NCBI GenBank assembly: GCA_902780865.1
Contig: CACZHC010000042.1
Span: forward strand, 279 to 64,278
DNA: 64,000 bases
Direction of reading: 5' to 3'
DNA from: an uncultured bacterium
GTDB lineage: Bacteria > Verrucomicrobiota > Kiritimatiellia > RFP12 > UBA1067
A program made the position numbers and the translations under genes. The notes under the pieces are model-generated. The model was not told where the DNA came from. It did no database searches and worked only from the letters and a program-made list of their open reading frames with translations. The first letter of the stretch is position 1. The number at the start of each line of letters is the position of its first letter. Positions 7,606-49,027 of the stretch are shown one piece after another.

Positions 7606-7642
7606 GGTAACCACGAAATACACGAAAAGCTAAGATAACAAG

Positions 7643-7679: not shown

Positions 7680-7687
7680 ATCGTATA

Positions 7688-7703
7688 CCCTCCAGTTGGA
7701 GGG
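7688..7703. promoter_or_regulatory. palindrome CCCTCCAGTTGGAGGG (copy 3)
   Basis: Identical 16-mer. Confidence 0.55.
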
Positions 7704-7726
7704 GTTTTCAGTGGTGGGGGTGTGGA

Positions 7727-7734
7727 TGTATAAT
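7727..7734 (+). promoter_or_regulatory. -10 box TGTATAAT
   Basis: Same spacing to the palindrome. SD aaaggag before the ATG at 7794. Confidence 0.45.
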
Positions 7735-7793
7735 CTAAGCGAACAAACAACACGAACTCTACACTGTCATGCCTAGATAAAGGAGTGATAAAA

Positions 7794-14261: not shown

Positions 14262-14267
14262 TATACT
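14262..14267 (+). promoter_or_regulatory. -10 box TATACT, 9 nt before the ATG at 14277
   Basis: Lies in a 38-nt G-free spacer; no SD present. Confidence 0.35.
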
Positions 14268-14276
14268 CCAACTATT

Positions 14277-15143
14277 ATGTACAAAGCTCTGAACTACTGG
14301 GTTTTCGGCGGGTTTGGTCCGAACAGGACGCCGTACGAATTCATCGACTTCGCGAAGGCGCAGGGCCTCGACGGCGTCGAGCTTACGGTCGGCGACTGTC
14401 TCTCGATCGACATCGACGAGGCGGAGTGCCGCAAGATCGCCGCCTACGCAAAGGAGAAGGGCGTGGGACTTAGGACGCTCGCGAGCGGATACTACGGCGC
14501 CGAGTCGCTTGGCGCGGCGAATGAAGGCGAGCGCATTCGCGCGGTGGACTTCACGAAGAAGTATCTGCAGATTGCCGCGTGGATCGGCGCGGAGACGATT
14601 CTCGTCGTCCCTGGATCGACGCATGTGACGTGGGATCCTTCGCGTCCGGTCGTTCCCTACAAGACGGTCTGGGAAAACTCGACGAAGTCGATCAACGAAT
14701 TAATCCCGCTTGCCGAGAAGCTTGGCGTCAACATCGCTCTTGAGAACGTGTGGATGCGCTTCCTTCTCTCGCCGATGGAATGGAAGCTTTTCATCGACCA
14801 GTTCAAGAGCGATCGCATCGGCATGTATCTTGATATCGGCAACTGCCTCATCTACGCGCCGGCGCAGGACTACGTCGAGACGCTCGGCGCGAAGCGCATC
14901 AAGGCCGTTCACATCAAGAACTGGAAGGGCGGCGACTGCGGCGGCACGCTTCACGGCTTCGGAGACTCGCTGCTGTCCGGCGACGTCGACTACAAGGCCG
15001 TCTTCGCCGCGCTCAAGAAGGTCGGCTACAGCAAGACGTTCACGGCGGAGATGATTCCGTTCTCTCGACTGCCCGATCTGGTCCTTCCAGACCAGGCCCT
15101 TGCCGAGAAGACCGCGGCCGAACTAAGGGAGCTCTGCGTCTGA
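14277..15143 (+). CDS. sugar phosphate isomerase/epimerase (xylose isomerase-like TIM barrel)
   Basis: 288-aa ORF with family-typical LENV, IGMYLDIGN and VHIKN segments. Confidence 0.85.
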   Translation: MYKALNYWVFGGFGPNRTPYEFIDFAKAQGLDGVELTVGDCLSIDIDEAECRKIAAYAKEKGVGLRTLASGYYGAESLGAANEGERIRAVDFTKKYLQIAAWIGAETILVVPGSTHVTWDPSRPVVPYKTVWENSTKSINELIPLAEKLGVNIALENVWMRFLLSPMEWKLFIDQFKSDRIGMYLDIGNCLIYAPAQDYVETLGAKRIKAVHIKNWKGGDCGGTLHGFGDSLLSGDVDYKAVFAALKKVGYSKTFTAEMIPFSRLPDLVLPDQALAEKTAAELRELCV

Positions 15144-15191: not shown

Positions 15192-15200
15192 TGATATACT
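15192..15200 (+). promoter_or_regulatory. extended -10 box TGATATACT
   Basis: Followed by SD gaaagggaag and the ATG at 15234. Confidence 0.4.
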
Positions 15201-15233
15201 GCCCAAAACACGAAAGGGAAGTGGTGTAGAACA

Positions 15234-16358
15234 ATGAGATATGGTGTTTTGGGTGTTTCGCTTCTGGCGGCGTTTGCCGCGTCCGTCTGGGCGAACGACG
15301 CGGCGGACGCGCCTTTGGGCGGGGAGCAGCGGTTTCGGAAAGTCTTCGCGTTCACCGACATCGGCGACGACGAACACGCGGCGAAGCTCGCTGAACTGAA
15401 CGTCTTCGCCGCGAACTGCTGCGATGCCGCGAACCGTCCGGACCCTGAGAAGATCGCACGGGCGAAGCGGTTCGGCATCGTGCCCTATGTCGCGTTCGGT
15501 CCGTTCTGCGATTCGCATGTCCAGGTGCTTTCGTCTGAGGAGGCGCGGCTCCAGTCCGAGCTGCAGAGCAGGTTCGTCGCGTCCGAGGCAAAAGGCGAGG
15601 CGGGAGACCGGGGGCGGACCGATCTCTGGCGGACGCGGCACTACCGTCTCGGCGGCGAACCCGAGCCCGGGAACACGGAGGTCTTCGTTGAGAACGTCGG
15701 CTGCTTCGTCGGAACTAACGCCTGCGCGAAAGGGGCCGCCAGTCTCGTGGAGCGGCTCAAGGCGAACCCTGAGGCGAAGGCGGTGTGCCTCGACTACATC
15801 GGTTACGCCAACTACCGTGGCTGCCGCCATCCCGACTGCCTGCGCCTGCTGAAGGCGTGGCTGGAGCGGGAGGGGCTCGCCGACACCGAGGAGAACCGCG
15901 ACCGTTTCTTCGAGGACCAGATCGTCGCGTACTATGCCGCGCTCTACGATGCCGTGAAGGCATACGATCCGTCCGTCGTCGTCTACGCGCACCTCTATCC
16001 CGTGTTCCTGCCGGATCCGCTGTATGGCAGCCGGCTGAAGCTCGACTATTGCGCGCAGACCTGCGCATGGTATTTCCGCTGGCCGGCGGAGAAGGTCCGG
16101 AAATACGCCGAGACGGTCGTTCGCGGCCAGCGCGAACACTGGCCGTTCGCCCACGGCGTGCCGTTCGTCGCCTACGGACCATGGGCGAACGACATCGACC
16201 CCGATTTCAGGAAGACGCCCGAGGACCTCGACCGCGAACTTCGCGCGGTGCTGGAGTCCGGCGCCGAGTACCTTTCCGTCCATGAGATTGATTCGATAAT
16301 CGCCGACCCAGTCGTCTTCGCGGTCTTCAAGAAGTACTGCGCCGACCCAAGTCGCTGA
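15234..16358 (+). CDS. secreted hypothetical protein
   Basis: Signal peptide MRYGVLGVSLLAAFAASVWA. Protein-like composition; no family recognised. Confidence 0.7.
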   Translation: MRYGVLGVSLLAAFAASVWANDAADAPLGGEQRFRKVFAFTDIGDDEHAAKLAELNVFAANCCDAANRPDPEKIARAKRFGIVPYVAFGPFCDSHVQVLSSEEARLQSELQSRFVASEAKGEAGDRGRTDLWRTRHYRLGGEPEPGNTEVFVENVGCFVGTNACAKGAASLVERLKANPEAKAVCLDYIGYANYRGCRHPDCLRLLKAWLEREGLADTEENRDRFFEDQIVAYYAALYDAVKAYDPSVVVYAHLYPVFLPDPLYGSRLKLDYCAQTCAWYFRWPAEKVRKYAETVVRGQREHWPFAHGVPFVAYGPWANDIDPDFRKTPEDLDRELRAVLESGAEYLSVHEIDSIIADPVVFAVFKKYCADPSR

Positions 16359-16388: not shown

Positions 16389-16396
16389 TGTATAAT
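16389..16396 (+). promoter_or_regulatory. -10 box TGTATAAT, 9 nt before the ATG at 16406
   Basis: No SD in the gap. Confidence 0.4.
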
Positions 16397-16405
16397 GTTC
16401 GTCAC

Positions 16406-18493
16406 ATGAATCTGAAAATGATTTTGCTGCACGTAAGCGTTCTGCTCGCCTGTTCTGTTGGAGCGGTTCAGTTTGACGCCGCCGAGCCGATCTGGACGAC
16501 GGCGGAGAAGGGCGAGGTCAACTCGTCCGTCGCCTTCACGACGCATTTCGAGTGGGACGGTAGGGCGCCGCTCAAGCTGCGGCTGGCGGGCTGTTCAATC
16601 TTCAAGGTGTTCGTGAATGGCGAGTTTGCCGCGTATGGTCCGGCGCGCGGCCCCCACGGATGGTTCCGGATGGACGAGTGGAACCTTTCCCGCGTCGCGC
16701 GCAAGGGCGACAACCGGCTCAGCATCGTGGGCGTCGCCTACAATACGACGACCTACTACATCGTCGAGCACGAGCCGTTTCTGCAGGCCGAGGTGCTGTC
16801 TGGTGGAAAGGTCGTGCGGGCCACGGGCGACGGGAAGTGGGGCGCCAACTTCACGGAGCGCGTCCGCAAGACCCAGCGCTACAGTCTCCAGCGCGCGCAG
16901 AGCGAAGTCTACGAAGTGCCGCGGCACGACCATTGGGAATGGTGGAAGCGCGACGGGCTTAAGGGCAAGTCTCTCATCATCACAAATGCGCCGTCGGTGA
17001 AGCTTCTCGAACGCGGGGCACCTTATCCGAAGTTTAAAATTGACGGCACCTATCGTCCGACAGACGTTCTCGCCGTCAGTCTGCAAACTGGCAATCTTGG
17101 CGAGGCGCCGCATCTCTGGGACAAGAAGGGGAGCTTTCTTGGACGCACTTATCAGACCGCTGAGTTGAAGTACACCCCGTCGGTCGATTGGTGGAAGCGG
17201 ACGATCGAGTCGAAGGCGAAATTCGAAGGCGGGGCGGCGAGGGTCGATGCGTCGCGCGGCGTCCGCTACGAGGGCGCGATAAACGACACTGGTTTTCTTC
17301 GCCTCAAGGTGAAGGTAACGAAGCCAGGGCGCTTGCTCGTCGGGTTTGACGAGATTCTCGTCGATGGCAAGCTCGATTTTCTAAAACGATTCGGATGCAA
17401 CAACATTGTTCTATGGGATGTTAAGGAGCCGGGCGAGTACGATTTCGAGTCGTTCGAGCCCTACACCTTCAAGTTCGCCGAGGTGATCATGCTGGAGCTG
17501 AAGGATCCGGCGGACCGCAAGATATTCGAGGCCGCGCGCGAGACTTTTGCGCAGAATGCGGTCGACGTGTTTACGGATTGCCCGAGTCGCGAGCGCGCTG
17601 GCTGGCTTTGCGACAGCTACTTCACTGGGCCTGCCGAGCATTTCTTTACGGGGAAGAACGAAATCGAGCGCACGTTCCTTCGAAACTTCGCGCTTGCCGA
17701 GAGGTTCCCGCATCTTCCCGATGGGATGGTGCCGATGTGTTATCCTGGGGACCACATCAACAAGACCTTCATTCCGAACTGGTCGATGTGGTTCATTCTC
17801 GAGCTTGCAAACTATTTCGAGCGTACGGGCGATCGTGAAACCGTCGATCTGCTTCGTCCTCGCGTAGAGGGACTTCTTAAATTCTATTTGCAGTTCTTGA
17901 ACGCGGATGGCGCGCTTGAGAACCTGCCGGGATGGGTGTTCGTGGAATGGAGCCACGCGAACGACACGAAGCTCGTCAAGGACGGTGTGAACTGGCCGTC
18001 GAACATGACGTACGCGGATGTCCTCTCGAAGGCGGCGCGGCTTTACGGACGTCCCGAACTCGCAGAGCAGTCAAAGAAGCTGAAGTCGCTCATCCGCGAA
18101 CGTGCGTACGACGGCGTATGGTTCCGTGACAACGCGAAGCATCCCGACGTTACGGAGACGTGCCAGTACTATGCGTTCTTCCACGGTATCGCGACGCCGA
18201 AGACGCATCCCGAGCTGTGGCGGCGGATTACGGACGAGTTCGGCCCCGAGCGCAAGGCGAAGGGGCTCTACAAGGAAGTCTGGCCGTCGAACGCCTTCAT
18301 CGGGAACCTGATGCGACTCATCGTCCTTAAGCGCGAGGGCCGCGACGCGCAGGTTTCGCGTGAGATACGCGGCTACTATCTCAAGATGGCGGAGACGACT
18401 GGAACGCTGTGGGAGCACGACCGTCCCGAGGCGAGCTGCAACCACGCATTCGCTTCATACTTAGCAATTCTCCTTGACGAGACGAACAAATAG
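16406..18493 (+). CDS. alpha-L-rhamnosidase-like six-hairpin glycosidase (GH78-like)
   Basis: Signal peptide MNLKMILLHVSVLLACSVGA. DCPSRERAGW motif resembles the DCPxR(D)ERxGW signature of the GH78 catalytic domain. Confidence 0.7.
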   Translation: MNLKMILLHVSVLLACSVGAVQFDAAEPIWTTAEKGEVNSSVAFTTHFEWDGRAPLKLRLAGCSIFKVFVNGEFAAYGPARGPHGWFRMDEWNLSRVARKGDNRLSIVGVAYNTTTYYIVEHEPFLQAEVLSGGKVVRATGDGKWGANFTERVRKTQRYSLQRAQSEVYEVPRHDHWEWWKRDGLKGKSLIITNAPSVKLLERGAPYPKFKIDGTYRPTDVLAVSLQTGNLGEAPHLWDKKGSFLGRTYQTAELKYTPSVDWWKRTIESKAKFEGGAARVDASRGVRYEGAINDTGFLRLKVKVTKPGRLLVGFDEILVDGKLDFLKRFGCNNIVLWDVKEPGEYDFESFEPYTFKFAEVIMLELKDPADRKIFEAARETFAQNAVDVFTDCPSRERAGWLCDSYFTGPAEHFFTGKNEIERTFLRNFALAERFPHLPDGMVPMCYPGDHINKTFIPNWSMWFILELANYFERTGDRETVDLLRPRVEGLLKFYLQFLNADGALENLPGWVFVEWSHANDTKLVKDGVNWPSNMTYADVLSKAARLYGRPELAEQSKKLKSLIRERAYDGVWFRDNAKHPDVTETCQYYAFFHGIATPKTHPELWRRITDEFGPERKAKGLYKEVWPSNAFIGNLMRLIVLKREGRDAQVSREIRGYYLKMAETTGTLWEHDRPEASCNHAFASYLAILLDETNK

Positions 18494-18504
18494 CCAGGAG
18501 AGGG

Positions 18505-18774
18505 AACTCCGAGCGTTAGGGCTCCCGCTACCGCTCCGCTGCTTCGCGATGTCTCAACGGTGATTCCGTGCGTTGAATTGTCTTTTGGGCTGCCTTCGGC
18601 AGGCTTTGAAGGCATAGTAACCATTCCGTCACGGCAATGAGGAGGTCTGGAGGACACGTCCTCCAGCTTTAAGACGATCTGTATCATTCAGCGAGACACG
18701 AATGATGGGCGCGAAGCAAATGAGATTCTGCGGAGCGGTAGCGAGAGACCTGCTGATCGGAGTTGAAAATCGGC
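18505..18774. repeat. 270-nt rod-like repeat element (copy A): MITE-like or structured ncRNA
   Basis: The first 119 nt are repeated at 63882-64000 (about 85 percent identity by eye, first 35 nt identical). Termini pair over about 45 nt: 18505-18512/18767-18774, 18521-18539/18730-18749, 18540-18548/18710-18718. Internal hairpins at 18590-18602 and 18647-18666. Confidence 0.7.
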
Positions 18775-18861: not shown

Positions 18862-18870
18862 TGGTATACT
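18862..18870 (+). promoter_or_regulatory. extended -10 box TGGTATACT
   Basis: Followed by a ~30-nt leader with SD aaaggag before the ATG at 18906. Confidence 0.45.
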
Positions 18871-18905
18871 ATGTCCACAACTGAAACCTGAAAGGAGATT
18901 CAAAG

Positions 18906-20207
18906 ATGGCGAAGAGAGTGATGCTCATTGGCGCTGGCGGAGTTGCCGGAGTTGCGGCGGCGAAGATGGCCCAGAACCCTGACGTGTTCGGCGAGATCCT
19001 TATCGCCTCGCGCACGCAGTCGCGTTGCGACGCCATCAAGGCGGACATTGACCGTCGCGCGGCCGAAGGAAAGGGCGCGTGGGCAAAGGCGACTACGGCT
19101 CCTGCGAAGATCACGACTGCGCAGATTGACGCGATGGATACGCCGCGTCTCGTCGCGATGATCCGCGAGTTCAAGCCCGACCTCGTCATGAACATCGCGC
19201 TTCCCTATCAGGATCTCGCGATCATGGACGCGTGTCTCGCGGCTGGCGTGAGCTACCTGGACACCGCCAACTACGAGCCGCCGGACGAGGCGCACTTCGA
19301 GTACTCCTGGCAGTGGGCGTACCGCGAGAAGTTTGAGAAGGCGGGACTTACCGCTATCCTCGGTTGCGGTTTCGACCCTGGCGTAACGCAGGTGTTCTCG
19401 GCCTACGCGCAGAAGCACTACTTCGACACTATCGAGACGCTCGACATTCTCGACTGCAACGGCGGCGATCACGGGTATCCTTTCGCGACGAACTTTAACC
19501 CCGAGATCAACATTCGCGAAGTCGCCGCGAAGGGCAGCTACTGGGTAGCCGATCCTAAGGACGACAAGCCCGAGGTCGCCGTCGAGAACAAGAAGGCATT
19601 CGACAAGGGCTATTGGGTCGAGACCGCGCCTATGGCTATCAAGCGCGAGTATGTCTTTGACCAGGTTGGCAAGAAGGACATGTACCTTCTCCACCACGAG
19701 GAGCTCGAGTCGCTCGGCTGCAACTTGAAGGGCATCAAGCGAATCCGCTTCTTCATGACTTTCGGGCAGAGCTACCTCACTCACCTCAAGTGCCTTGAAA
19801 ACGTCGGGCTTACGCGCATCGACCCGATTGACTTCAAGGGCCAGAAGATCGTTCCTATCGAGTTCTTGAAAGCGCTTCTTCCCGACCCCGCGTCGCTTGG
19901 CCCCCGCACGAAGGGCAAGACGAACATCGGCTGCATCTTCCATGGGTTCAAGGACGGCAAGCCGGTCGACTACTACGTGTACAACGTGTGCGACCATCAG
20001 GAGTGCTACGCCGAGGTTGGCTCGCAGGCGATCAGCTACACGACGGGTGTCCCCGCGATGATCGGCGCCAAGATGTTCCTCGAGGGCAAGTGGACGACTA
20101 AGGGCGTCCACACATGCGAGGAGTTCGATCCCGATCCGTTCATGGCCGAGCTCAACGTTCAGGGTCTTCCGTGGCAGGAGACGTTCGATCCCGTCAAGGT
20201 TCCTTGA
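18906..20207 (+). CDS. carboxynorspermidine synthase/dehydrogenase (saccharopine dehydrogenase family)
   Basis: MLIGAGGVAGV Rossmann start. Length and adjacency to nspC fit the alternative spermidine/norspermidine pathway. Confidence 0.85.
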   Translation: MAKRVMLIGAGGVAGVAAAKMAQNPDVFGEILIASRTQSRCDAIKADIDRRAAEGKGAWAKATTAPAKITTAQIDAMDTPRLVAMIREFKPDLVMNIALPYQDLAIMDACLAAGVSYLDTANYEPPDEAHFEYSWQWAYREKFEKAGLTAILGCGFDPGVTQVFSAYAQKHYFDTIETLDILDCNGGDHGYPFATNFNPEINIREVAAKGSYWVADPKDDKPEVAVENKKAFDKGYWVETAPMAIKREYVFDQVGKKDMYLLHHEELESLGCNLKGIKRIRFFMTFGQSYLTHLKCLENVGLTRIDPIDFKGQKIVPIEFLKALLPDPASLGPRTKGKTNIGCIFHGFKDGKPVDYYVYNVCDHQECYAEVGSQAISYTTGVPAMIGAKMFLEGKWTTKGVHTCEEFDPDPFMAELNVQGLPWQETFDPVKVP

Positions 20208-21371: not shown

Positions 21372-21380
21372 TGGTATAAT
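21372..21380 (+). promoter_or_regulatory. extended -10 box TGGTATAAT
   Basis: tttttggtataat; a ~23-nt leader with gaaagga lies before the GTG at 21410. Confidence 0.5.
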
Positions 21381-21409
21381 TAGTACTTCACATTGAAAGG
21401 ACAAGACAA

Positions 21410-22684
21410 GTGAAGATTGACACACTATGCGTTCAGGGCGGCTGGTACCCCAAATGCGGCGAGCCGCGCCAGGTTCCCGTGTATTCGTCTACGACGTTCA
21501 AGTACGATACGACGCAGCACATGGCGGACCTCTTTGACCTGAAGGCGCCAGGATATTTCTACACTCGACTCGCGAACCCGACGAACGATGCGGTGGCGAA
21601 GAAGATTGCCGCGCTTGAAGGTGGTGTCGCGGCGATTCTCACGAGCTCCGGACAGGCGGCTTCTACGTTCGCGATCCTTAATCTCTGCAACGCTGGCGAC
21701 CATGTCGTCTCCTCGGCACAGATCTACGGCGGCACGTTCAATCTCTTTGCCGTATCGCTCAAGAAGCTCGGCATCGAGTTCACATTCGTCGACCCCGACG
21801 CGACGCCCGCGGAGATACAGAAGGCGTTCCGCCCGAATACGAAGTGCGTTTTCGGCGAGACGGTCGCGAATCCCTCGGGCTGCGTTCTCGACATCGCGAA
21901 GTTCGCCAAGGTCGCGCACAAGAACGGCGTGCCGCTCATCGTAGACAACACCTTCCCCACCCCGATTCTCTGCCGTCCGTTCGAATTCGGCTGCGACATC
22001 GTCACCCACGCGACGACGAAGTACATGGACGGCCACTCCTCGCAGGTTGGCGGCTGCATCGTCGACTCCGGCAACTTCGACTGGTCGAAGCACGCCGACA
22101 AGTTCCCCGGCCTCGTCGAGCCCGACGCCTCCTACCATGGTCTCAGCTACGTGAAGGCGTTCGGCAAGATGGCCTACATCGTGAAGTGCACCGCGCACCT
22201 GATGCGCGACTTCGGCTCGATCCCCTCGCCGTTCAACGCGTTCCTCCTGAACCTCGGCCTCGAGTCGCTGCACCTCAGGATACGTCGCCACGCGGAGTCT
22301 GCGCTCAAGATCGCCAAGTGGCTCAAGACCCAGAAGAAGGTCGCGTGGGTCAACTTCGCCGGTCTCCCCGGCTCGAAGTACAACAAACTCGTCAAGAAGC
22401 AGTTCAACGGCAACTCGCCGTGCGGCGTGATGACGTTCGGCATCAAGGGCGGCAGGAAGGCGTCCATCAAGTTCATGGACTCGCTGAAGCTCATTGGTAT
22501 CGTGACGCACGTTGCCGACGCCTGGAGCTGCGTCCTGCATCCTGCTTCGCACACGCACCGCCAGCTTACGGACGCGCAGCTCAAGGCTGCCGGCATCCCG
22601 CCGGATCTCATCCGCCTTTCGGTGGGCCTCGAGGATCCAGACGATCTCATTGCCGACATTAAGCAGGCACTGGCGAAGGTGTGA
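21410..22684 (+). CDS. metY: O-acetylhomoserine aminocarboxypropyltransferase/sulfhydrylase
   Basis: 424-aa Cys/Met-metabolism PLP enzyme (..STTFKYDT.., HATTKYMDGHS with the PLP lysine). Confidence 0.9.
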   Translation: MKIDTLCVQGGWYPKCGEPRQVPVYSSTTFKYDTTQHMADLFDLKAPGYFYTRLANPTNDAVAKKIAALEGGVAAILTSSGQAASTFAILNLCNAGDHVVSSAQIYGGTFNLFAVSLKKLGIEFTFVDPDATPAEIQKAFRPNTKCVFGETVANPSGCVLDIAKFAKVAHKNGVPLIVDNTFPTPILCRPFEFGCDIVTHATTKYMDGHSSQVGGCIVDSGNFDWSKHADKFPGLVEPDASYHGLSYVKAFGKMAYIVKCTAHLMRDFGSIPSPFNAFLLNLGLESLHLRIRRHAESALKIAKWLKTQKKVAWVNFAGLPGSKYNKLVKKQFNGNSPCGVMTFGIKGGRKASIKFMDSLKLIGIVTHVADAWSCVLHPASHTHRQLTDAQLKAAGIPPDLIRLSVGLEDPDDLIADIKQALAKV

Positions 22685-27960: not shown

Positions 27961-28042
27961 TTCCTCGGTGATGCAAGTTTGTGGCATAATGCCGCCATGT
28001 CGAACTTTGGCGAATTCGATGTGGCGGCGGGTGGCTCATATT

Positions 28043-28051
28043 TGGTATAAT
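28043..28051 (+). promoter_or_regulatory. extended -10 box TGGTATAAT, 6 nt before the ATG at 28058 (leaderless)
   Basis: atttggtataat tagcac ATG. Confidence 0.55.
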
Positions 28052-28057
28052 TAGCAC

Positions 28058-29512
28058 ATGAACGAAAATCAAACTTCAAGGATGTCCAATTTTCGCTGGG
28101 CCATCTGTGCGTTGCTGTTTTTTGCAACTACCGTAAACTACCTCGACCGTCAGGTCCTGTCACTCACGTGGAAGGACTTCATCTCGCCCGAGTTCAACTG
28201 GACCGACAACGACTACGGCACGATCACGGCGGTGTTTTCGATCATATACGCCTTGTGCAACCTCTTCGCCGGCAAGTTCATCGACAAGCTCGGGACGAAG
28301 AAGGGGTATCTCTGGGCGATCTTCATCTGGTCGCTCGGTGCGTGCCTCCATGCGGCGTGCGGCGTCGGCACTTCCGCGCTCAAGGCCGCCGGCTTTGTCG
28401 CCATGATGGGCATCACGGCGTCCGTGTGGCTCTTCCTCGCGTGCCGCGCTGTGCTCGCACTCGGCGAAGCGGGCAACTTCCCTGCGGCGATCAAGGTGAC
28501 GGCGGAGTACTTCCCGAAGAAAGACCGCGCGTTCGCGACCTCGATCTTCAACTCCGGCTCTTCCGTCGGCGCACTCGCCGCGCCTCTCACGATTCCGATT
28601 ATCGCGAAGTTCTGGGGCTGGGAGATGGCGTTTATCGTCATCGGCGCCCTTGGCTTTGTGTGGATGGGCTTCTGGATTTGGCTCTACAAGAAACCCGCCG
28701 AGAACCCGCGCGTCACGGCAGAGGAGCTCAAGTACATCGAGTCGGACGATGCAACGGACGGGGCCTCGGGCGGCCCCGCACCCTCGCCCGAGGAAAAGAA
28801 AATCTCTTATGGCAAGGCGTTTTCGCTTCGCCAGACGTGGTCGCTCGTCTTCGGCCGATTCCTCACCGACGGCGTGTGGTGGTTCTTCCTCTTCTGGACC
28901 CCTGGGTACTTCTCCGACCAGTTCGGCTACAAGAGCGACACCCTTGCGGGCATGGCGCTGATCTTCTCCCTCTACGCGATCGTCACTTTCGTCTCGATAG
29001 GGCTCTGCAAGATTCCGACGTACATGGTCGACAAGCGCGGCATGAACGCCTACGAGGGTCGCATGGTCGCGATGTTCATCTTCGCGTGCTTCCCGCTTCT
29101 CGCGCTCGGCGCACAGCCCCTCGGTGTGTTCGGCAGCTCCCTCGCGGTCAACGCTCAGAAATTCCTCGCCGCCATGGGTGTTGCGATCTTGATCGGCCTC
29201 GCTTGCGCTGGTCACCAGGCGTGGAGCGCGAACGTCTACTCCGTCGTCGGCGACATGTTCCCGAAGTCGACGATCGGTACCTTGACCGGCATCGCGCAGT
29301 TCGCGGCGGGCTGCGGCAGCTTCATGGTGAACAAGTGCGCGGGCAAGCTCTTTACATACGCGGCGGAACAGGGCGATGCGTTCGCGTTCTGCGGCTACAC
29401 CGGCAAGCCCGCCGGATACATGATTCTCTTTAGCTATTGCGCCGTCGCCTACATTGTCGGCTGGTGCTTTATGAAGGGCCTCGTGCCGCACTACAAGAAG
29501 GTTGAGCTGTAA
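28058..29512 (+). CDS. MFS transporter, hexuronate/sugar-acid (ExuT-like) type
   Basis: 484 aa, 12 TM-like segments, N terminus FRWAICALLFFATTVNYLDRQVLS typical of the anion:cation symporter branch. Confidence 0.85.
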   Translation: MNENQTSRMSNFRWAICALLFFATTVNYLDRQVLSLTWKDFISPEFNWTDNDYGTITAVFSIIYALCNLFAGKFIDKLGTKKGYLWAIFIWSLGACLHAACGVGTSALKAAGFVAMMGITASVWLFLACRAVLALGEAGNFPAAIKVTAEYFPKKDRAFATSIFNSGSSVGALAAPLTIPIIAKFWGWEMAFIVIGALGFVWMGFWIWLYKKPAENPRVTAEELKYIESDDATDGASGGPAPSPEEKKISYGKAFSLRQTWSLVFGRFLTDGVWWFFLFWTPGYFSDQFGYKSDTLAGMALIFSLYAIVTFVSIGLCKIPTYMVDKRGMNAYEGRMVAMFIFACFPLLALGAQPLGVFGSSLAVNAQKFLAAMGVAILIGLACAGHQAWSANVYSVVGDMFPKSTIGTLTGIAQFAAGCGSFMVNKCAGKLFTYAAEQGDAFAFCGYTGKPAGYMILFSYCAVAYIVGWCFMKGLVPHYKKVEL

Positions 29513-38822: not shown

Positions 38823-38831
38823 TGGTATAAT
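38823..38831 (+). promoter_or_regulatory. extended -10 box TGGTATAAT, 7 nt before the ATG at 38839 (leaderless)
   Basis: ttttggtataat acaaaga ATG. Confidence 0.55.
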
Positions 38832-38838
38832 ACAAAGA

Positions 38839-40209
38839 ATGAAATTCAAATATAAGTCGATGTCGGAGTACTGCTCCGAATACGTGCGCTATCTGGGGAT
38901 CGCGAAGACCGAACGCCGCAGCTATGCCGAGAGCGTTCGGCTTCTCGAAAAAAGGGGATTCAAGGACATCTCCAAGTTCAAGACGCTGAAGCCCGGCGAC
39001 AAGGTGTATCGCGGCTACGAAGGTCGCACCGTCATGGCCGCGGTGATCGGCAAGAAGAAGATTTCCGAAGTCGGTCTCAAGGTCGTCGGCGGCCATACCG
39101 ATGCGCCGCGTCTCGACCTCAAGCCGAGGCCACTCTACGAGAAAGGCGGCTACGTCTACTTCGACTGCCATATCTACGGCGGCATCAAGAAGTACCAGTG
39201 GCTCGTCCTTCCGCTCGCGCTCTACGGAACAGTCGTCCGCAAGGACGGCAAGAAGATCGACATCGCTGTGGGCGACGCGCCCGGCGACCCCGTCTTCATG
39301 ATTAGCGACATCCTGCCCCATCTCGGCAAGGATCAGGCGAAGCAGACGCGCGACGAGTTCTTCCCCGCCGAAGATCTCGATGTCTTTGCGTGGACGACTT
39401 ACGCGAAGCCCGAGAAGGGCGCGAAGCCAGGCGAAGAGCCCAAGGCCGGCAAGTCCGATTTCGTCGCCTATTTGAAGAAGACCTACAAGATCGACGAAGA
39501 GGATCTTCTCTCGGCCGAGCTCGAGATCGTCCCCGCGGGAATGCCGCGCGAAGTCGGCTTCGACCGCGCTCTCATCGCCGGCTACGGCCATGACGACCGC
39601 GTCTGCTCGTTCGCCGGCCTCCAGGCGCTTATCGACGCTTCCGACCACATCCCCGACGTCACCGCGTCGATTCTCATGTGCGACAAGGAGGAGATCGGCT
39701 CTATGGGCTCCACCGGCATGCAGTCGAGCTTCTTCGAGAACACCGTCGCCGAGATGGTCGAGCGCCAGGAGAAGAACGCGCGCGACATCCTCGTGCGCCG
39801 CGCGCTCGAGCACTCCACGATGCTCTCCGCCGACGTGTCGGCCGCGTCCGATCCCCACTTCCCCGACGTCGACTCGACCGGCAACCGTGCGCGCTTCCAC
39901 GCAGGCCCCGTCGCCTCTAAGTACACCGGCGGCACGACAAAGGGCGGCGCGAGCGACTGCGGCCCCGAGTTCATCGCCGAGATTCGCCGCATTATGGACG
40001 AAGGCGACGTCACATGGCAGATGTGCGAGCTTGGCCGCATGGAGAAGGGCGGCGGCGGCACGATCTCCCAGTACATGGCGAGGTTCGGCATGAAGGTGCT
40101 CGACATGGGCACACCTCTTCTCAACATGCACGCCCCGTGGGAGCTCGCATCGAAATTTGACTGTTGGCAAACATACCGCGCATACAGCGCATACCTAAGG
40201 AGTAAATAA
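38839..40209 (+). CDS. M18-family aminopeptidase
   Basis: VGGHTDAPRLDLKPRP, GYGHDDRVC, DKEEIGS motifs. Confidence 0.9.
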   Translation: MKFKYKSMSEYCSEYVRYLGIAKTERRSYAESVRLLEKRGFKDISKFKTLKPGDKVYRGYEGRTVMAAVIGKKKISEVGLKVVGGHTDAPRLDLKPRPLYEKGGYVYFDCHIYGGIKKYQWLVLPLALYGTVVRKDGKKIDIAVGDAPGDPVFMISDILPHLGKDQAKQTRDEFFPAEDLDVFAWTTYAKPEKGAKPGEEPKAGKSDFVAYLKKTYKIDEEDLLSAELEIVPAGMPREVGFDRALIAGYGHDDRVCSFAGLQALIDASDHIPDVTASILMCDKEEIGSMGSTGMQSSFFENTVAEMVERQEKNARDILVRRALEHSTMLSADVSAASDPHFPDVDSTGNRARFHAGPVASKYTGGTTKGGASDCGPEFIAEIRRIMDEGDVTWQMCELGRMEKGGGGTISQYMARFGMKVLDMGTPLLNMHAPWELASKFDCWQTYRAYSAYLRSK

Positions 40210-43933: not shown

Positions 43934-44944
43934 TTATGATTTGCTATGAAGATACAACATAAGCTCTTTCAGCGGAGGGATACGAACAATGGTCTTGAAA
44001 ATTACTTTGTCTGAGACTTTCCGTATCCGTGAAATCTGTCTTCTAGCGGCACTGATTCTTGCGCGTTCGTTATGGGTAATGAAAATGGCGTGCCAATCCC
44101 CCTTGAATATGTCGATATGTCCCTTCAGAAGATGCAGAAGCGAATGGCAAAGCAAAAGGGTTTTGCAGACTGTTAGAATTCGCAGCCTACTCCCAAACGA
44201 CAAATTTGCACTTAGAGAGAACAAAACATTCTTTAGATATCTTGCCATCACATCGGAATGTCGGAATTGATTAGTTGTAGCTCCGCATAGGTGATCGATG
44301 GGAGGTGTCTTAACATACCAAACCTCGTTGCCCGATAGCCAAATCCTGTGGCAAAGGTCTGTCTCTTCGTAGTAACACCAGAAGTGCGACCTAAAGAGGA
44401 ATCCACCAACACATGTCAGAAGTGATCGGCGAAATAGCAAAAAGAATCCACTGACGGTATAGCATGGATGTGTCTCGTCAAAGATAGATTCTTTTTGATT
44501 AAACCCAGGGGACCACATAAAGCCTATTGGAGTAAGAAAACTTCCGCAGCCGGCGAGGGTGTTTCCTTCGCGCGGAAGTTGGCCAGACCCCTGTGCTGCT
44601 CCGCATCGTGGATTGTTGTCGAGGAAGGCGATGAGTTGATCGATGGACTCGCGTGTATGGACGATTGTATCGTTGTTGAGAAACAGGATGTATTCTCTGT
44701 CGCAGTATGGAAGTGCGCGGTTGTTTCCTCCTGCGAAGCCAGGATTGCCAGCGCTTGGCAGATATATTGCGTTAGAATGAGACGCGACGATTCGCCGTGT
44801 TGCTTCGGAAGGGGAATTGTCTACGACTATGATTTGTGGAGCTTGCCCACATGTTTCTTTCAATGAATCTAGACAAAGTCTTATCAACTCGTCGCCTTTA
44901 TAGGTGACAAGTATTATTGAAACATCATTCAAAGTATGTGTCAC
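43934..44944 (-). CDS. family 2 glycosyltransferase (rhamnosyltransferase-like)
   Basis: GTG start. VSIILVTYKG..VVDNSPSE..FLNNDT. Confidence 0.85.
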   Translation of the reverse strand: MTHTLNDVSIILVTYKGDELIRLCLDSLKETCGQAPQIIVVDNSPSEATRRIVASHSNAIYLPSAGNPGFAGGNNRALPYCDREYILFLNNDTIVHTRESIDQLIAFLDNNPRCGAAQGSGQLPREGNTLAGCGSFLTPIGFMWSPGFNQKESIFDETHPCYTVSGFFLLFRRSLLTCVGGFLFRSHFWCYYEETDLCHRIWLSGNEVWYVKTPPIDHLCGATTNQFRHSDVMARYLKNVLFSLSANLSFGSRLRILTVCKTLLLCHSLLHLLKGHIDIFKGDWHAIFITHNERARISAARRQISRIRKVSDKVIFKTIVRIPPLKELMLYLHSKS

Positions 44945-45003
44945 TATTGTTGATTATCGGAATTTGGAGAAGCTGCTATGGCAATCAAATATGGCTTTTT
45001 CAT
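44944..45003 (-). CDS. 19-codon leader ORF coupled to the GT2 operon (MKKPYLIAIAASPNSDNQQ)
   Basis: GGGAGG 6 nt before the ATG at 45003. Its TAG overlaps the GTG of the next gene (TAGTG). Below the ORF-track size cut-off. Confidence 0.3.
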   Translation of the reverse strand: MKKPYLIAIAASPNSDNQQ

Positions 45004-45026
45004 ATTGTGCCTCCCTTTGCGTAAAT

Positions 45027-45035
45027 ATTATACCA
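45027..45035 (-). promoter_or_regulatory. extended -10 box TGGTATAAT (minus strand)
   Basis: Complement of attatacca; faces the minus-strand GT operon. Confidence 0.5.
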
Positions 45036-45113
45036 TAAAGAGAGGAGGGATGTGAGCGCGTTATATGCGCCTCCTTTGACGAAGTGCGGTGAATTACGAA
45101 CGGGCGTTTAATT

Positions 45114-45122
45114 TGGTATAAT
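45114..45122 (+). promoter_or_regulatory. extended -10 box TGGTATAAT, 6 nt before the ATG at 45129
   Basis: atttggtataat atccgc ATG. Confidence 0.5.
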
Positions 45123-45128
45123 ATCCGC

Positions 45129-45272
45129 ATGGACAATGAGATGTTTGAGCGAAACCTACCGCCATATCTGGTGCACGAACGCGATGCCAGGAAGAAGGGC
45201 GTTCGGCTGCAGCTCTACAGGATCTATCTCGCAGCCAGGCAAGACGTGATGTTTAAAAGGACTGGAGTATGA
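45129..45272 (+). CDS. 47-codon leaderless small ORF coupled (ATGA) to the next gene
   Basis: MDNEMFERNLPPYLVHERDARKKGVRLQLYRIYLAARQDVMFKRTGV. Its stop TGA at 45270 overlaps the ATG at 45269. Below the ORF-track cut-off. Confidence 0.35.
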   Translation: MDNEMFERNLPPYLVHERDARKKGVRLQLYRIYLAARQDVMFKRTGV

Positions 45273-46297
45273 GTGGGAAATCTGCGGATTTTGTTGAGGA
45301 TCGTTTTGGATATCCGATGAATCTTCGAGCGTATGTGACGCGCGGAATCATATGGGGTCAGCGCATAGTCTTTTCTCGTGTCCTTAACGGGATAAACGAT
45401 CATCGCCCTATTCCGCCTGATTATGTTGGACAAGCTGCTAATGACATCATCCGTGAACTGCTTGAACGAGATGCCCCATGCCTGATTGCGCGTTTCGGAT
45501 GTGTGGAACTTGATGCAATTCTTCGTGGTTATGACATTGCAATCAGGAAAAATAACTTGATTAAGTTCGTTAGGCTCTTTACAGGCGCGTCGGGGCCATT
45601 TTGGTGGGATAATTCAATCCGAAAAAATATGCTTTGCACAACCGGCGTATTTCCTGTTGATGATGATACGTTGATGCGGTTCTCTAAACGATGCTTGGAG
45701 GATTGTGCGCAATTAGATGTATTGGGATCGTGGAATGCACGAGAACTTGAACTGAAACGTGGTTTTTTCCCCCATGTAAAAGGAATTTCGCTCATTGATC
45801 TGGAACCGTTTTTCAGGAACGAGCCATGGACGCAGGCACTTAAAGGGAAAAAGGTGCTTGTCGTGCATCCGTTTGACGCAACCATCCGGGAACAGTATGC
45901 GCGGCGGGAACGGCTGTTCAACGATGCGCGAATACTCCCGGCATTTGAACTTATCACTTACAGGCCGGTGCAGTCATTTCTTGGGTTAAAGACGCCGTAT
46001 CACGATTGGTTTGAAGCTCTCGGCAAGATGTGTGACGATATTGCCAAGATCGATTTTGATGTTGCCTTGCTCGGCTGCGGGGCTTATGGCATGTCGCTGG
46101 GCGCGTTCATCAAGCGCGACATGGGGCGCAAAGCCGTCCATCTTGGCGGGGTGACGCAAGTCCTTTTCGGGATTAAAGGTGGCCGCTATGACCCGAATCC
46201 GTATTACAATCGACTGTACAACGAATTCTGGGTGCGACCAAATGACAGAGAGCGTCCGATAAATTTTAGACAGCATGAAGGTGGTGCTTATTGGTAA
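45269..46297 (+). CDS. hypothetical glycan-biosynthesis protein, possibly GT-D/DUF1792-like glycosyltransferase
   Basis: 342-aa ORF in the glycan island. IARFGCVELD and LLGCGAYG segments are reminiscent of DUF1792. Weak assignment. Confidence 0.45.
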   Translation: MSGKSADFVEDRFGYPMNLRAYVTRGIIWGQRIVFSRVLNGINDHRPIPPDYVGQAANDIIRELLERDAPCLIARFGCVELDAILRGYDIAIRKNNLIKFVRLFTGASGPFWWDNSIRKNMLCTTGVFPVDDDTLMRFSKRCLEDCAQLDVLGSWNARELELKRGFFPHVKGISLIDLEPFFRNEPWTQALKGKKVLVVHPFDATIREQYARRERLFNDARILPAFELITYRPVQSFLGLKTPYHDWFEALGKMCDDIAKIDFDVALLGCGAYGMSLGAFIKRDMGRKAVHLGGVTQVLFGIKGGRYDPNPYYNRLYNEFWVRPNDRERPINFRQHEGGAYW

Positions 46298-47036
46298 TGG
46301 TATGTATAAGCAAGTAACAATCTTGATCTACACGTTTCCCGAGAAAGGGAACGAAGCGACTGCATTTACAAAGATTGTAGCCTCCATAGAACGCACTTGG
46401 GAAAATGTCGGGAAGCTAAAAACGGTCATTGTGGCAAGTCATCACTTCGCTGATGTGGACAACTTCGCATCGCAGCATTCCAATGTAGAGCTTCAGATAG
46501 AGCCATCGCTCGTCTACGGCAGCATCACCACTATGTCGATGGACTGCATCAAGCGACTTTATACAAGATTTACCACGCCTTATGTCCTCATTATCCAGGA
46601 TGACGGCTATCCGGTTCGCCCGGGTCTTGAGCAGTTTGTGGGCAAATGGGATTTCATCGGCGCGCCGTCGGTGCGTGACGGCCGTCGCCGCTTGATGAAC
46701 TTGCTTGGCTTTCCTTGCCTGAACGGAGGGTTCTCGCTGCGTTCTAAGCGCATCTGCATTCGCGCCGCAAACGCATGGAACAGATGGTGGCGTTTCTTTT
46801 TGAATCCTAAATCACGCTTCTTTTTTGAAGATACATTCTACACTCTGACTGCATGCCTAGGATGGGGCTATCGGCATGGGCTAAAGTTTGCGGGTGAAAA
46901 AGACGCCTTCGCATTTGCCTTTGATTCGCTTAAGGGCCTGATAGTAAAGCCGAAGGACATTGACTCTTTTGGCATTCATGGACGTTCTACAGTTGATATG
47001 TTGAGGCGCGGGATAGAAAACACAACAGTAGGATAG
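46275..47036 (+). CDS. DUF5672-like protein (paralogue of 48081..48914)
   Basis: YVLIIQDDGYP..DFIGAP..NGGFSLRS shared with the paralogue. Alternative start ATG at 46302. Confidence 0.7.
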   Translation: MKVVLIGNGMYKQVTILIYTFPEKGNEATAFTKIVASIERTWENVGKLKTVIVASHHFADVDNFASQHSNVELQIEPSLVYGSITTMSMDCIKRLYTRFTTPYVLIIQDDGYPVRPGLEQFVGKWDFIGAPSVRDGRRRLMNLLGFPCLNGGFSLRSKRICIRAANAWNRWWRFFLNPKSRFFFEDTFYTLTACLGWGYRHGLKFAGEKDAFAFAFDSLKGLIVKPKDIDSFGIHGRSTVDMLRRGIENTTVG

Positions 47037-47047
47037 GAGTCCGGTTG

Positions 47048-48076
47048 ATGAAAGTAACTGTAATTATCCCATGCTTTCACAATGAGTCGACGATATCTGA
47101 TGTGCTTGCGGACATTAGATGCCAGACCTGTTCCGATTGGGAATTGCTGGTTGTTGGAAATGGTTCTTGTCAAGAAGCACAGCGGAAGATTGTGGAGGCC
47201 GCCGCATCTAAAGATGGCCGCATAAAATACTTGTCCATAGAAGAGGCTGGTGTCAGTCGGGCACGAAATTTAGGAATTGAAAAGGCATCTGGCGAATGGA
47301 TCGCCTTTGTTGATGCGGATGACCGAGTGCCGCCGCAGTGGTTGGGTAATTTTCTTTCTCATGTTTCCCTGGAGCCGGATGTTGTCGCTGGCGGTATCAG
47401 CTATAGAGACGAGCGCTCTTCGAATGTGCATCGTACTGACTTGAAGCTCGACTCGGAAGAAGTGTATTGCACTGATGCCAAAGAGTTTGTCTCTGTATTT
47501 TTAAGCGATATGGCGGTAACTTATTCGCCGTGTACAAAAATATTCAGAACTCAATTTCTCAAGAATTCGGGCATAATGTTTCGAGAGGATATATCTGTCT
47601 ATGAAGACGGCATATTCAACCTTGAAATTGCCATGGCCTGTAGCTCGATGTGCTTCATAAGGCAAACGGGATATGAATATTGCCTGCATCCTTCGACATC
47701 TGCCATAGGTCGTTATCATGCATGTATGAAAGAGGCTGTCGATGCGAGAAGAAAGCTAATTGAATCCGTCATGCGGCGTGGCGGGCTCAAGCAGAATGAC
47801 ATAGAGCGGCGCATGTCTGTGCAGCTTGAAGCCGACATGCTCGATGTTTTTCTCAATCTCTACAGACCTGGTTCATCAACGAAATTCTCTGGCAAGGTCA
47901 AACTAGCCAGGGAGATTTTTGCAAATGAAGACATTGCACGTGCTTGGAGAGTATCACGTCCGACAATGAAGAACCTGCCTCTACTGGCGTTTTGGTCCTT
48001 CTATGTCATGCGGTCGCCATTCTTGTGCGTTATGGCGTTCCATTTTCTTTTTCTTCTACGAAAGCTTTGGAGGTGA
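47048..48076 (+). CDS. family 2 glycosyltransferase
   Basis: MKVTVIIPCFHNE..LLVVGNGS..FVDADD. Confidence 0.9.
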   Translation: MKVTVIIPCFHNESTISDVLADIRCQTCSDWELLVVGNGSCQEAQRKIVEAAASKDGRIKYLSIEEAGVSRARNLGIEKASGEWIAFVDADDRVPPQWLGNFLSHVSLEPDVVAGGISYRDERSSNVHRTDLKLDSEEVYCTDAKEFVSVFLSDMAVTYSPCTKIFRTQFLKNSGIMFREDISVYEDGIFNLEIAMACSSMCFIRQTGYEYCLHPSTSAIGRYHACMKEAVDARRKLIESVMRRGGLKQNDIERRMSVQLEADMLDVFLNLYRPGSSTKFSGKVKLAREIFANEDIARAWRVSRPTMKNLPLLAFWSFYVMRSPFLCVMAFHFLFLLRKLWR

Positions 48077-48080
48077 GGCC

Positions 48081-48914
48081 GTGAGACGTCCCGATTCACC
48101 AGAAGACCTGAAGCTTCTTTCCTTGCATCTGGAAAAAAGCAACGCGCTCGGAATGGCTGGGCTTGGAGATGTCACGCCAAGGAAAGACGTCACGGTGCTG
48201 ATGTACTTCTTCTGGGCAGAAGACAAAGCCGCAGAAAAGTGGCCTGAGTTCAAAGGTGCCATCCTGGAGACGTGGAGAAAATGCGGATTACTTAAGACTG
48301 TCATTGTAACAAATGCCTTGTGCCAATGTCTAAGCGATTTTGCTGGAGTCTTTGATAATGTTGAGATTCAGGTAGAGAAGCGTCTCGTTCCCGGTGATAT
48401 TGTTTCAATGAGCTATGATTGCAACTCACATCTTCACGAACGATTCTCAACTGACTATGTGCTCATAATCCAGAATGACGGTTTCCCGCTCCGCACGGGA
48501 TTAGATGAATTCATTGAGGCTGGATACGATTTCATTGGGGCGCCGCACTGCAGGCCGTTATTTATACCGAGTCTTTTGACTCGTCTGCTGCGCTACTGTC
48601 CGTCTAACGGCGGCTTTTCTCTGCGGTCAAGACGCCTTTGTCGGCTTGCCGCCAAGCTTTGGGAATCTGGGCATTTCGCTTCAAAGCCGTATGTTGAGGA
48701 TGTCATTGCAGAAGACTACTTCTATACAAAGACATTGCCTTTGTCCGGCTTAGGGAATTGGCTTCGTCGCAGCCAGGCGTCCAGTGCTTTGTCGGACCGG
48801 TTTTCGTATGGCGCGGCATTCCCATTGACTGCGAAGTCATTGCCATTTGGATTTCATACTGCAACTGCATTTGGCGAGCTGAACCGGAAGCTTGGATTTG
48901 TTGGTGCAGGATAG
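48081..48914 (+). CDS. DUF5672-like protein
   Basis: GGAGGTGA then GTG at 48081, just after the stop at 48076. YVLIIQNDGFP..DFIGAP..NGGFSLRS. Confidence 0.7.
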   Translation: MRRPDSPEDLKLLSLHLEKSNALGMAGLGDVTPRKDVTVLMYFFWAEDKAAEKWPEFKGAILETWRKCGLLKTVIVTNALCQCLSDFAGVFDNVEIQVEKRLVPGDIVSMSYDCNSHLHERFSTDYVLIIQNDGFPLRTGLDEFIEAGYDFIGAPHCRPLFIPSLLTRLLRYCPSNGGFSLRSRRLCRLAAKLWESGHFASKPYVEDVIAEDYFYTKTLPLSGLGNWLRRSQASSALSDRFSYGAAFPLTAKSLPFGFHTATAFGELNRKLGFVGAG

Positions 48915-49027
48915 ACGGCTAGTTATTCCTATAAGAGTTTATAGACTTTAGAGAATGATAATTCAAGTTCGGTGCAAGATGTTGGGACAGTTGAATATCA
49001 TCGTGATCTCATGTAGCATGGAGTGCT

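Follow-up and report, generated by a model that had tools for sequence, protein, structure and literature searches.

Extended -10 promoters of Escherichia coli (TGnTATAAT) and the promoters of Bacillus that have a TRTG '-16 region' are a minority class, and they rarely sit on a start codon. Among the classes of gene starts recognized by GeneMarkS-2, group C is the one in which a Pribnow box sits 6-8 nt before the start of genes that come first in an operon; the gap between box and start holds no Shine-Dalgarno (SD) sequence, and the other genes use an SD at about the same distance (PMC6028130). An estimated 25-50% of transcripts in group C are leaderless, and the group is concentrated in Actinobacteria and Deinococcus-Thermus, with M. 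tuberculosis, M. smegmatis, and D. deserti as examples (PMC6028130; PMC3160421). In the Planctomycetes-Verrucomicrobia-Chlamydiae (PVC) superphylum, Cappable-seq of Akkermansia muciniphila (Verrucomicrobiota) found that 10% of mapped transcription starts were leaderless, and these had a TATAAT box and followed a pyrimidine-purine rule at the start (PMC4782308). Our search of the literature found nothing that ties leaderless mRNAs to Kiritimatiellota or to the PVC superphylum as such. Here we analyze a 64,000-nt stretch of DNA (the window) from an uncultured bacterium of the Kiritimatiellia (contig CACZHC010000042.1), in which the 9-mer TGGTATAAT recurs directly upstream of start codons, an arrangement that had led to an original prediction of widespread leaderless expression. 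Our analysis makes it likely that these boxes are housekeeping sigma-70 extended -10 promoters situated so near the ATG that the mRNAs are leaderless or nearly so.

The sequence TGGTATAAT has 11 matches in the window, compared with a mean of 0.02 in dinucleotide-preserving shuffles, none of which reached 11. With up to one mismatch allowed there are 17 matches, whereas 2.3 are expected. Ten of the 11 exact copies are intergenic and face a gene, in a window whose G+C content is ~60% apart from a low-GC island at 44-49 kb. The original prediction gave the correct coordinates for these ten and for the remaining copy at 57540, but it described the latter as intragenic and this box in fact overlaps the stop codon of its gene. 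The copy at 57540 is the sole exception to the intergenic placement of the 9-mer. The variant boxes that had been proposed are also present: TGATATAAT at 837 and 63802 (both on the minus strand), TGGTATACT at 18862, TGATATACT at 15192, TGGTAAACT at 58716 (minus strand), TGTATAAT at 16389, in which the TG directly abuts TATAAT, and a bare TATACT without the TG at 14262. Likewise, each of the five divergent intergenic regions said to carry back-to-back boxes does so.

Eight of the 13 TGnTATAAT boxes in the window have an ATG at a gap of 6-8 nt from the last T (binomial p = 1e-8), and six of these eight ATGs open reading frames (ORFs) of at least 100 aa (p = 6e-9), both values being computed against the window's own ATG frequency. 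All ten ATGs that had been named as lying 6-9 nt past the last T of a box have that spacing; two of them open only short ORFs and two belong to weak sites. Using a gene set that combines public gene calls with manual curation, we could assign about 20 promoter-like boxes in the window, namely eight strong box-plus-ATG sites, two weaker ones, and about ten boxes with a leader. The strong sites, the weaker candidates, and the orphan box at 57540 are as follows.

827-845, minus strand: HisKA_3 histidine kinase gene; TGATATAAT at 845-837, 7-nt gap, ATG 829
28043-28060, plus strand: focal site, gene for an MFS sugar-acid transporter of 484 aa; TGGTATAAT at 28043-28051, 6-nt gap, ATG 28058
38823-38841, plus strand: gene for an M18 aminopeptidase of 456 aa; TGGTATAAT, 7-nt gap, ATG 38839
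45114-45272, plus strand: 47-codon ORF; TGGTATAAT, 6-nt gap, ATG 45129
50995-51014, minus strand: gene for a membrane protein of 439 aa, the first of a two-gene operon; TGGTATAAT at 51014-51006, 8-nt gap, ATG 50997
51073-51091, plus strand: dapA, 292 aa; TGGTATAAT, 7-nt gap, ATG 51089
54146-54165, minus strand: gene for a NifS/IscS-like cysteine desulfurase of 398 aa; TGGTATAAT at 54165-54157, 8-nt gap, ATG 54148
54213-54278, plus strand: 16-codon ORF (MDMTVIFAMGGTVWPY, then a stop codon); TGGTATAAT, 6-nt gap, ATG 54228
14262-14279, plus strand: weaker candidate, gene for a xylose-isomerase-like TIM barrel protein; TATACT without TG, 9-nt gap, ATG 14277
16389-16408, plus strand: weaker candidate, gene for a rhamnosidase-like protein; TGTATAAT, 9-nt gap, ATG 16406
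57540-57548, plus strand: orphan TGGTATAAT overlapping the TAA stop of a metallophosphoesterase gene

The same arrangement extends well beyond the window. Relatives were collected by searching with the NifS-like protein (52952-54148, minus strand) against one genome per GTDB species, which yielded rumen and gut metagenome-assembled genomes (MAGs) of Kiritimatiellia/Kiritimatiellae at 62-96% identity to the query (loci L003-L052) and loci from Planctomycetota and other phyla at ~60% identity (L053-L082). These matches assign the window to an uncultured member of the Kiritimatiellota from gut or rumen, and its proteins are also present on metagenome contigs in ENA. We pooled L003-L052 and the window with those orthologue loci of the MFS transporter gene that are high in GC, which gave 867 kb of DNA with 129 TGnTATAAT boxes (~1 per 6.7 kb), compared with ~7 expected from base composition. 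At 66 of the 129 boxes an ATG that opens an ORF of at least 100 aa occurs at a gap of 6-12 nt, with a mode of 8, and only three GTG or TTG starts fall in the same interval, so that ATG is used nearly exclusively. A histogram of box-to-start distances in this pool, a check suggested in the original prediction, peaks sharply at 6-10 nt (6-8 nt in the window), with no second peak around 20-30 nt. Within the window and L003-L052, the box-plus-ATG sites span 33 unrelated protein families, including SecA, LysS, MnmA, Rpe, KdsA, and PyrD-like proteins, and the N-termini that result look canonical.

A start-centered analysis of 613 coding-like ORFs, which did not presuppose the box, gave a similar picture: in 74 ORFs (12%, 41 families) the 5'-most ATG follows the end of a -10-like hexamer by 5-11 nt. 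When loci were divided by relatedness, a box at a gap of 6-10 nt was found in 52 of 382 ORFs from close Kiritimatiellia loci versus 3 at a control offset, in 5 of 111 ORFs from deeper Kiritimatiellia loci versus 1, and in 2 of 193 ORFs from Planctomycetota-type loci versus 6. The gap profile of low-GC Bacteroidota-like loci was flat, with no peak. Overall, roughly 40-50% of the recognizable promoters of the window and ~12-14% of genes in related Kiritimatiellia DNA have a box-proximal start.

The composition of the element is that of an extended -10 promoter. The family-weighted logo reads W-T-W-T-G-g-T-A-T-A-A-T-a, i.e., TRTGnTATAAT, with an A/T-rich stretch upstream of the TG; T reaches 80% and G 77% at -15/-14, two positions that were not used in selecting the sites. 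As had been predicted, a -35 element is absent, given that TTGnnn occurs at a distance of 16-18 nt in only 6.8 of 41 families (family-weighted) and that the -35 region nowhere reaches 0.2 bits of information. Because they lack a -35, most of the boxes escape a two-hexamer promoter scan of 44-64 kb, and in the divergent regions of 91 nt (50998-51088) and 117 nt (54149-54265) the same scan turned up no alternative plausible promoter. A pyrimidine (C or T) directly precedes the ATG in 32.5 of 41 families (79%), which fits the usual rule of a pyrimidine at -1 and a purine at +1 of transcription starts. In addition, the first five codons of box-proximal genes are 41% A compared with 19% in gene bodies, and this A-richness, together with the preference for ATG, is consistent with translation of leaderless mRNA. 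The claim that the gap has no room for an SD also stands, as an SD-like 4-mer occurs there in just 2 of the 69 box-proximal genes. A repeat or mobile-element origin of the boxes was ruled out because the sites have only ~13 nt in common and their flanks are unrelated.

An important question is whether the ATG next to the box is the true start of the gene. For four of the genes, those for NifS, DapA, the MFS transporter, and the M18 peptidase, the positions of Pfam domains and the N-termini of orthologues indicate that it is. The Aminotran_5 match begins at residue 5 of NifS and the DHDPS match at residue 3 of DapA, and the next in-frame start in either gene would cut into the conserved domain. 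In the M18 peptidase the Pfam domain begins at residue 22, and an orthologue in L025 has the same box-plus-ATG arrangement and the conserved N-terminus MK.KY. The N-terminal extensions of both the M18 peptidase and the MFS transporter are conserved at the protein level. At the focal site, an in-frame TAG lies two codons 5' of ATG 28058, and thus the transporter ORF cannot extend further 5'. The public gene calls place three of the starts downstream, at ATG 811 rather than 829 for the kinase, which drops the basic MKKWSR N-terminal region, at ATG 28082 rather than 28058 for the transporter, and at ATG 38860 rather than 38839 for the M18 peptidase (a 449-aa product). Should translation really begin at the proximal ATGs, as the orthologues suggest, these public N-termini are 6-8 residues too short. 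For the weaker candidate at 16389, ATG 16406 gives a signal-peptide-like N-terminus, while the public call starts the gene at ATG 16358, which overlaps the upstream stop codon.

An imperfect copy of the box, TGGCATAAT, lies 61 nt 5' of the focal box (the two span 27982-28051) and also has an ATG at a gap of 6 nt. This ATG opens a 17-codon ORF (MSNFGEFDVAAGGSYLV, then a stop codon) that ends inside the focal box, and its first four residues match the MSNF that comes after the transporter's second Met. The 17-codon ORF may be what is left of a former start region.

The arrangement varies among orthologues. Among the MFS transporter loci, which come from metagenomes, L085 and L086 keep TGGTATAAT and the ATG at a gap of 6 nt, and in L087, L089, L092, and L094 the gap is 7, 8, 10, and 7 nt, respectively. 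Three of these (L087, L089, and L092) have no second Met, which leaves the proximal ATG as the only available start. Another five orthologues (L088 and L095-L098) instead have a GGAG-type SD before the start. For NifS, ~25 Kiritimatiellia orthologues have a box and an ATG at gaps of 7-12 nt, six have a box followed by ~22 nt that contain GAGG or AGGA and then the ATG, and ~10 orthologues together with all outgroups have only an SD. The NifS N-terminus, M-x-K/R-T/I-V-Y-F/L-DNNAT, is constant across all three classes. In both gene series the box and the ATG are retained while the bases between them vary, and the fact that the box comes first in leaderless as well as short-leader forms is as expected of a promoter -10 element and unlike a ribosome-binding-site (RBS)-like element. 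Two other genes behave similarly: dapA in the syntenic locus L003 (85% nucleotide identity) has TGATATAAT at a gap of 10 nt versus 7 nt in the window, with unrelated intervening bases, and the orthologues of the 439-aa membrane protein in L012 and L013 have TGATATAAT at a gap of 10 nt.

The MFS transporter is also 58-65% identical to homologues on low-GC Bacteroidota-like contigs (L099-L164), many of them from the human gut. These homologues share the N-terminal MN..QT..MSNFRW extension with the transporter of the window, which suggests transfer of the gene between gut phyla.

Boxes are not confined to positions next to a start codon. Those with leaders of 22-71 nt, most of which include an SD, precede the genes that start at 966, 6820, 7794, 15234, 18906, 21410, 45003 (minus strand), 58693 (minus strand), 58815, and 63730 (minus strand), of which the following were characterized individually.

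916-968, plus strand: gene for a SASA/CBM protein of 1890 aa; TGTATAAT at 916-923, 42-nt leader with AAAGGAAAG, ATG 966
15192-15236, plus strand: leadered gene; TGATATACT, 33-nt gap with GAAAGGGAAG, ATG 15234
18862-18908, plus strand: leadered gene; TGGTATACT, 35-nt gap with GAAAGGAG, ATG 18906
21372-21412, plus strand: MetY-like gene; TGGTATAAT, 29-nt gap with GAAAGGA, GTG 21410
44942-45035, minus strand: 19-codon ORF at 45003-44944; TGGTATAAT at 45035-45027, 23-nt leader with AAGGGAGG
58691-58724, minus strand: acyltransferase-3 gene; TGGTAAACT, 22-nt gap with GAAAGGAAAG, ATG 58693
58774-58817, plus strand: hrpB; TGGTATAAT, 32-nt gap, ATG 58815
63728-63810, minus strand: metK; TGATATAAT, 71-nt leader, ATG 63730

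An Rfam scan of the whole window at gathering thresholds gave no matches, and leadered genes such as metK therefore have no riboswitch or known leader RNA by this measure. Operon-internal genes have no box and carry an AAAGGAG-type SD; in these genes and in the other half of the first genes, the canonical AAAGGAG sits 6-9 nt before the start. The anti-SD listed for Kiritimatiellae is CCUCCUUU (PMC10783764), and the AAAGGAG of the operon-internal genes fits it. All six genes for which an AGGAG-type SD had been reported (6820, 7794, 13195, 18906, 29523, and 34253) do have one. SD-like 4-mers peak 5-10 nt before most genes other than the box-proximal ones, and since most other genes thus use an AAAGGAG-type SD, two modes of initiation coexist, as the original prediction held.

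Two of the box-proximal ATGs open short ORFs that overlap the start of a longer gene. The 47-codon ORF at 45129, which is included in the public gene calls, is the first cistron of the glycan operon in the low-GC island, and its stop overlaps, as ATGA, the ATG of a 342-aa gene at 45269. The 16-codon ORF at 54228 overlaps the start of hydF at 54266 in a different frame. The position of the GTPase domain places the hydF start at 54266, where the SD is weak at best. As regards conservation of this upstream ORF, hydF was found among the relatives only in L012 and L013, where it is operon-internal and has no box. On the other strand of the island, the leadered 19-codon ORF (45003-44944) ends in a TAG that shares bases with the GTG at which a GT2 gene starts (TAGTG). 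The orphan box at 57540 points into the 3' end of a convergent acyltransferase gene (57581-58693, minus strand) and has no ATG at 6-10 nt; it may be an antisense or small-RNA promoter.

How might the box-proximal genes be expressed? The sigma-70 holoenzyme would recognize the extended -10 promoter, with the TG contact expected to dispense with a -35 hexamer. RNA polymerase would then start ~7 nt past the last T of the box, either on the A of the ATG itself or 1-3 nt ahead of it, and the resulting mRNA would lack both a 5' untranslated region (UTR) and an SD. A ribosome carrying the initiator tRNA would bind the 5'-terminal AUG directly. The present data establish the motif and its enrichment, its geometry and its conservation in the lineage, the proximal ATG as the correct start of several genes, and the use of an SD alongside. 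Extended -10 promoters are well established, and leaderless translation is known from E. coli, mycobacteria, and Deinococcus; it is from these precedents that we infer the position of the transcription start, the independence from a -35, and the action of the ribosome. Every prediction that the leaderless reading makes at the level of sequence holds, and leaderless expression is strongly indicated.

Several points nevertheless weigh against this reading. The transcription start is a prediction from sequence. In relatives the modal gap of 8 nt, with values of up to 10-12 nt, exceeds the canonical 6-7 nt; the mode leaves room for a 5' UTR of 1-3 nt, and many transcripts may have a UTR of 1-5 nt. 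Because the loci of the survey are centered on one gene, they over-sample that neighborhood, a bias that weighting by family mitigates and does not remove. Of the ten ATGs in the original prediction, 45129 and 54228 open only short ORFs, and the sites at 14277 and 16406 are weaker, which is a caveat for both. Finally, an in-frame ATG lies 18-24 nt downstream of the proximal ATG at 829, 28058, and 38839, and it is the one preferred by the public caller. This last point leads to an alternative in which the boxes are promoters, but translation begins mostly at the downstream in-frame AUG or proceeds independently of an SD on a short leader, the proximal ATG being incidental or minor. The choice of 811, 28082, and 38860 in the public calls agrees with such a scheme, as does the promoter at 54213, from which hydF has a leader of 38 nt in which the first AUG opens just the 16-codon ORF. 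We regard the alternative as unlikely, however, in view of the domains of NifS and DapA that a later start would truncate, the MFS orthologues that offer no second Met, and the N-terminal extensions of the M18 peptidase and the transporter, which are conserved as protein. It also leaves unexplained the sharp, ATG-specific peak at 6-10 nt in more than 30 families.

A different possibility is that the motif is not a promoter, and instead acts on longer mRNAs as an AT-rich element for translation initiation or standby, or else is a TATAAT-like binding site of a global regulator. The motif does occupy the place of an RBS, and AT-rich RBSs of non-SD type exist in Bacteroidota (GeneMarkS-2 group B; PMC6028130). 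Yet the motif matches the full sigma-70 extended -10 consensus, the box also occurs 22-71 nt upstream of genes that have a well-placed SD, the operon-internal genes use an SD and do without the motif, and the 91- and 117-nt divergent regions hold no other promoter-like element. For these reasons, we think it improbable that the motif acts only after transcription or as a regulator site. Still less credible, to the point of being negligible, is the notion that AT-rich intergenic DNA, in a genome that is GC-rich, produced the boxes by chance or through its composition, or that they are copies of a dispersed repeat. Intergenic DNA is indeed more AT-rich than coding DNA, but base composition can hardly produce 11 copies where 0.02 are expected or an ATG spacing with p ~1e-8, and neither chance nor a repeat accounts for an arrangement that is kept at orthologous genes while the surrounding bases change.

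Accepting that the boxes are extended -10 promoters that yield leaderless or nearly leaderless mRNAs would extend frequent leaderless expression to Kiritimatiellota, a nearly all-uncultured phylum of PVC glycan degraders of the gut and rumen. Together with the findings in Akkermansia, it suggests that the trait is broader in the PVC superphylum than surveys focused on Actinobacteria and Deinococcus imply. It would also have consequences for annotation. Public starts lie 6-8 codons downstream at three of the eight strongest sites, and if the proximal ATG is the true one, the N-termini and signal peptides of proteins predicted from MAGs are being trimmed, so that gene callers that model leaderless starts are advisable for the Kiritimatiellia lineage. 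The near-consensus box is moreover a simple promoter marker of high specificity that can be used for defining operons in Kiritimatiellia MAGs. Orthologues that switch between a box next to the ATG and a box followed by a leader, an SD, and the ATG provide natural material on how genes move from one initiation mode to the other. A bolder proposal, which we put forward tentatively and would not expect to hold in full, is that the TRTGnTATAAT element without a -35 is the main promoter type in gut and rumen Kiritimatiellia, that leaderless transcripts there rival those of Actinobacteria and Deinococcus in frequency, and that some transcripts open with leaderless ORFs of 16-47 codons that overlap the next start (hydF at 54266 and the glycan-island gene at 45269), with the enzyme being translated by termination-reinitiation.

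The window has several further features. A 49-nt promoter module occurs three times (876-924, 6710-6758, and 7687-7735), before the genes at 966, 6820, and 7794, and consists of a perfect palindrome, CCCTCCA-GT-TGGAGGG, ~25 nt upstream of TGTATAAT; in the module of gene 966 the palindrome is CCCTCCAGTTGGAGGG. The palindrome module is probably a shared transcription-factor site, and it adjoins the HisKA_3 kinase gene. The regions upstream of 6820 and 7794 are paralogous and have in common a hairpin with a 15-bp stem (6661-6704 and 7641-7684). An intergenic sequence of 120 nt has two copies (18496-18615 and 63872-63993), which are 88-90% identical, with a GCTGCCTTCGGCAGC hairpin at the end. It matched nothing in Rfam, and the other fetched loci hold no copy of it; a small RNA or a conserved element of a UTR could account for it. 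Neither this repeat nor the palindrome module has further copies in the fetched loci outside the same organism. The spacer between dapA and ispF (51964-52028) is filled by nine C-rich heptamers (CTGACCC/CCTGACT), and ispF has no SD. Three copies of ACAGGATTT (52893-52919) lie upstream of a gene for a 122-aa protein at 52871 (minus strand). The low-GC island at 44000-49000 (0.47 vs 0.60) encodes GT2 glycosyltransferases and DUF5672 proteins, and a small ORF stands first in each of its two divergent operons, SD-led with 19 codons on the minus strand and of the leaderless type with 47 codons on the plus strand.

Apart from six short deletions, the window matches public contigs of the organism it comes from (L165, L083, and L084) with 100% identity. 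The deletions lie at 432 (43 nt), 1370 (19 nt), 17496 (69 nt), 27619 (41 nt), 35670 (69 nt), and 52945 (~40 nt). The deletion at 1370 frameshifts the gene of 1890 aa that starts at 966, the one at 27619 frameshifts UbiA, and the one at 35670 takes away the SD-led ATG of the next gene along with its first 23 codons. No promoter box is affected by the six deletions, which could be strain variants or assembly artefacts.

Leaderless or SD-free expression takes more than one form. Archaeal leaderless genes (GeneMarkS-2 group D) have a promoter box ~26 nt upstream of the start, and in Bacteroidota (group B) an AT-rich non-SD RBS stands before every gene, including operon-internal ones (PMC6028130). 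The Kiritimatiellia box ends 6-10 nt from the ATG, which does not agree with an archaeal type of arrangement. A Bacteroidota-type promoter or RBS (-7 TAnnTTTG) was ruled out in that TTTG precedes TATAAT here and the internal genes carry AAAGGAG. What the Kiritimatiellia share with groups D and B is SD-free expression, without the specific patterns of either. The resemblance to the extended -10 promoters of E. coli and Bacillus is greater, with a TG one base before the -10, a weak or absent -35, and A/T-rich DNA upstream, but unlike in those bacteria TGnTATAAT appears to be the dominant recognizable promoter form.

Akkermansia has in common with the Kiritimatiellia the superphylum, the gut habitat, the TATAAT box, and the pyrimidine-purine rule. 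Its leaderless starts were measured directly in a cultured species, whereas those proposed for the Kiritimatiellia are read from genome sequence, and counts based on the box suggest that they make up a larger share of promoters here than in Akkermansia. The architecture as a whole is like that of group C, in that the box lies 6-8 nt from the start of first genes, the gap has no SD, and an SD is used elsewhere. It departs from group C in its phylum, Kiritimatiellota of the PVC superphylum, and in its promoter, for the degenerate TANNNT of group C is replaced by a nearly perfect TATAAT that carries a TG extension and, upstream, a TRTG-like stretch. The starts are almost exclusively ATG, and the gap in relatives has a mode of 8 nt and ranges to 10-12 nt. 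The genes of the window thus appear to represent a known kind of system, the leaderless architecture, in a new lineage, the Kiritimatiellota.

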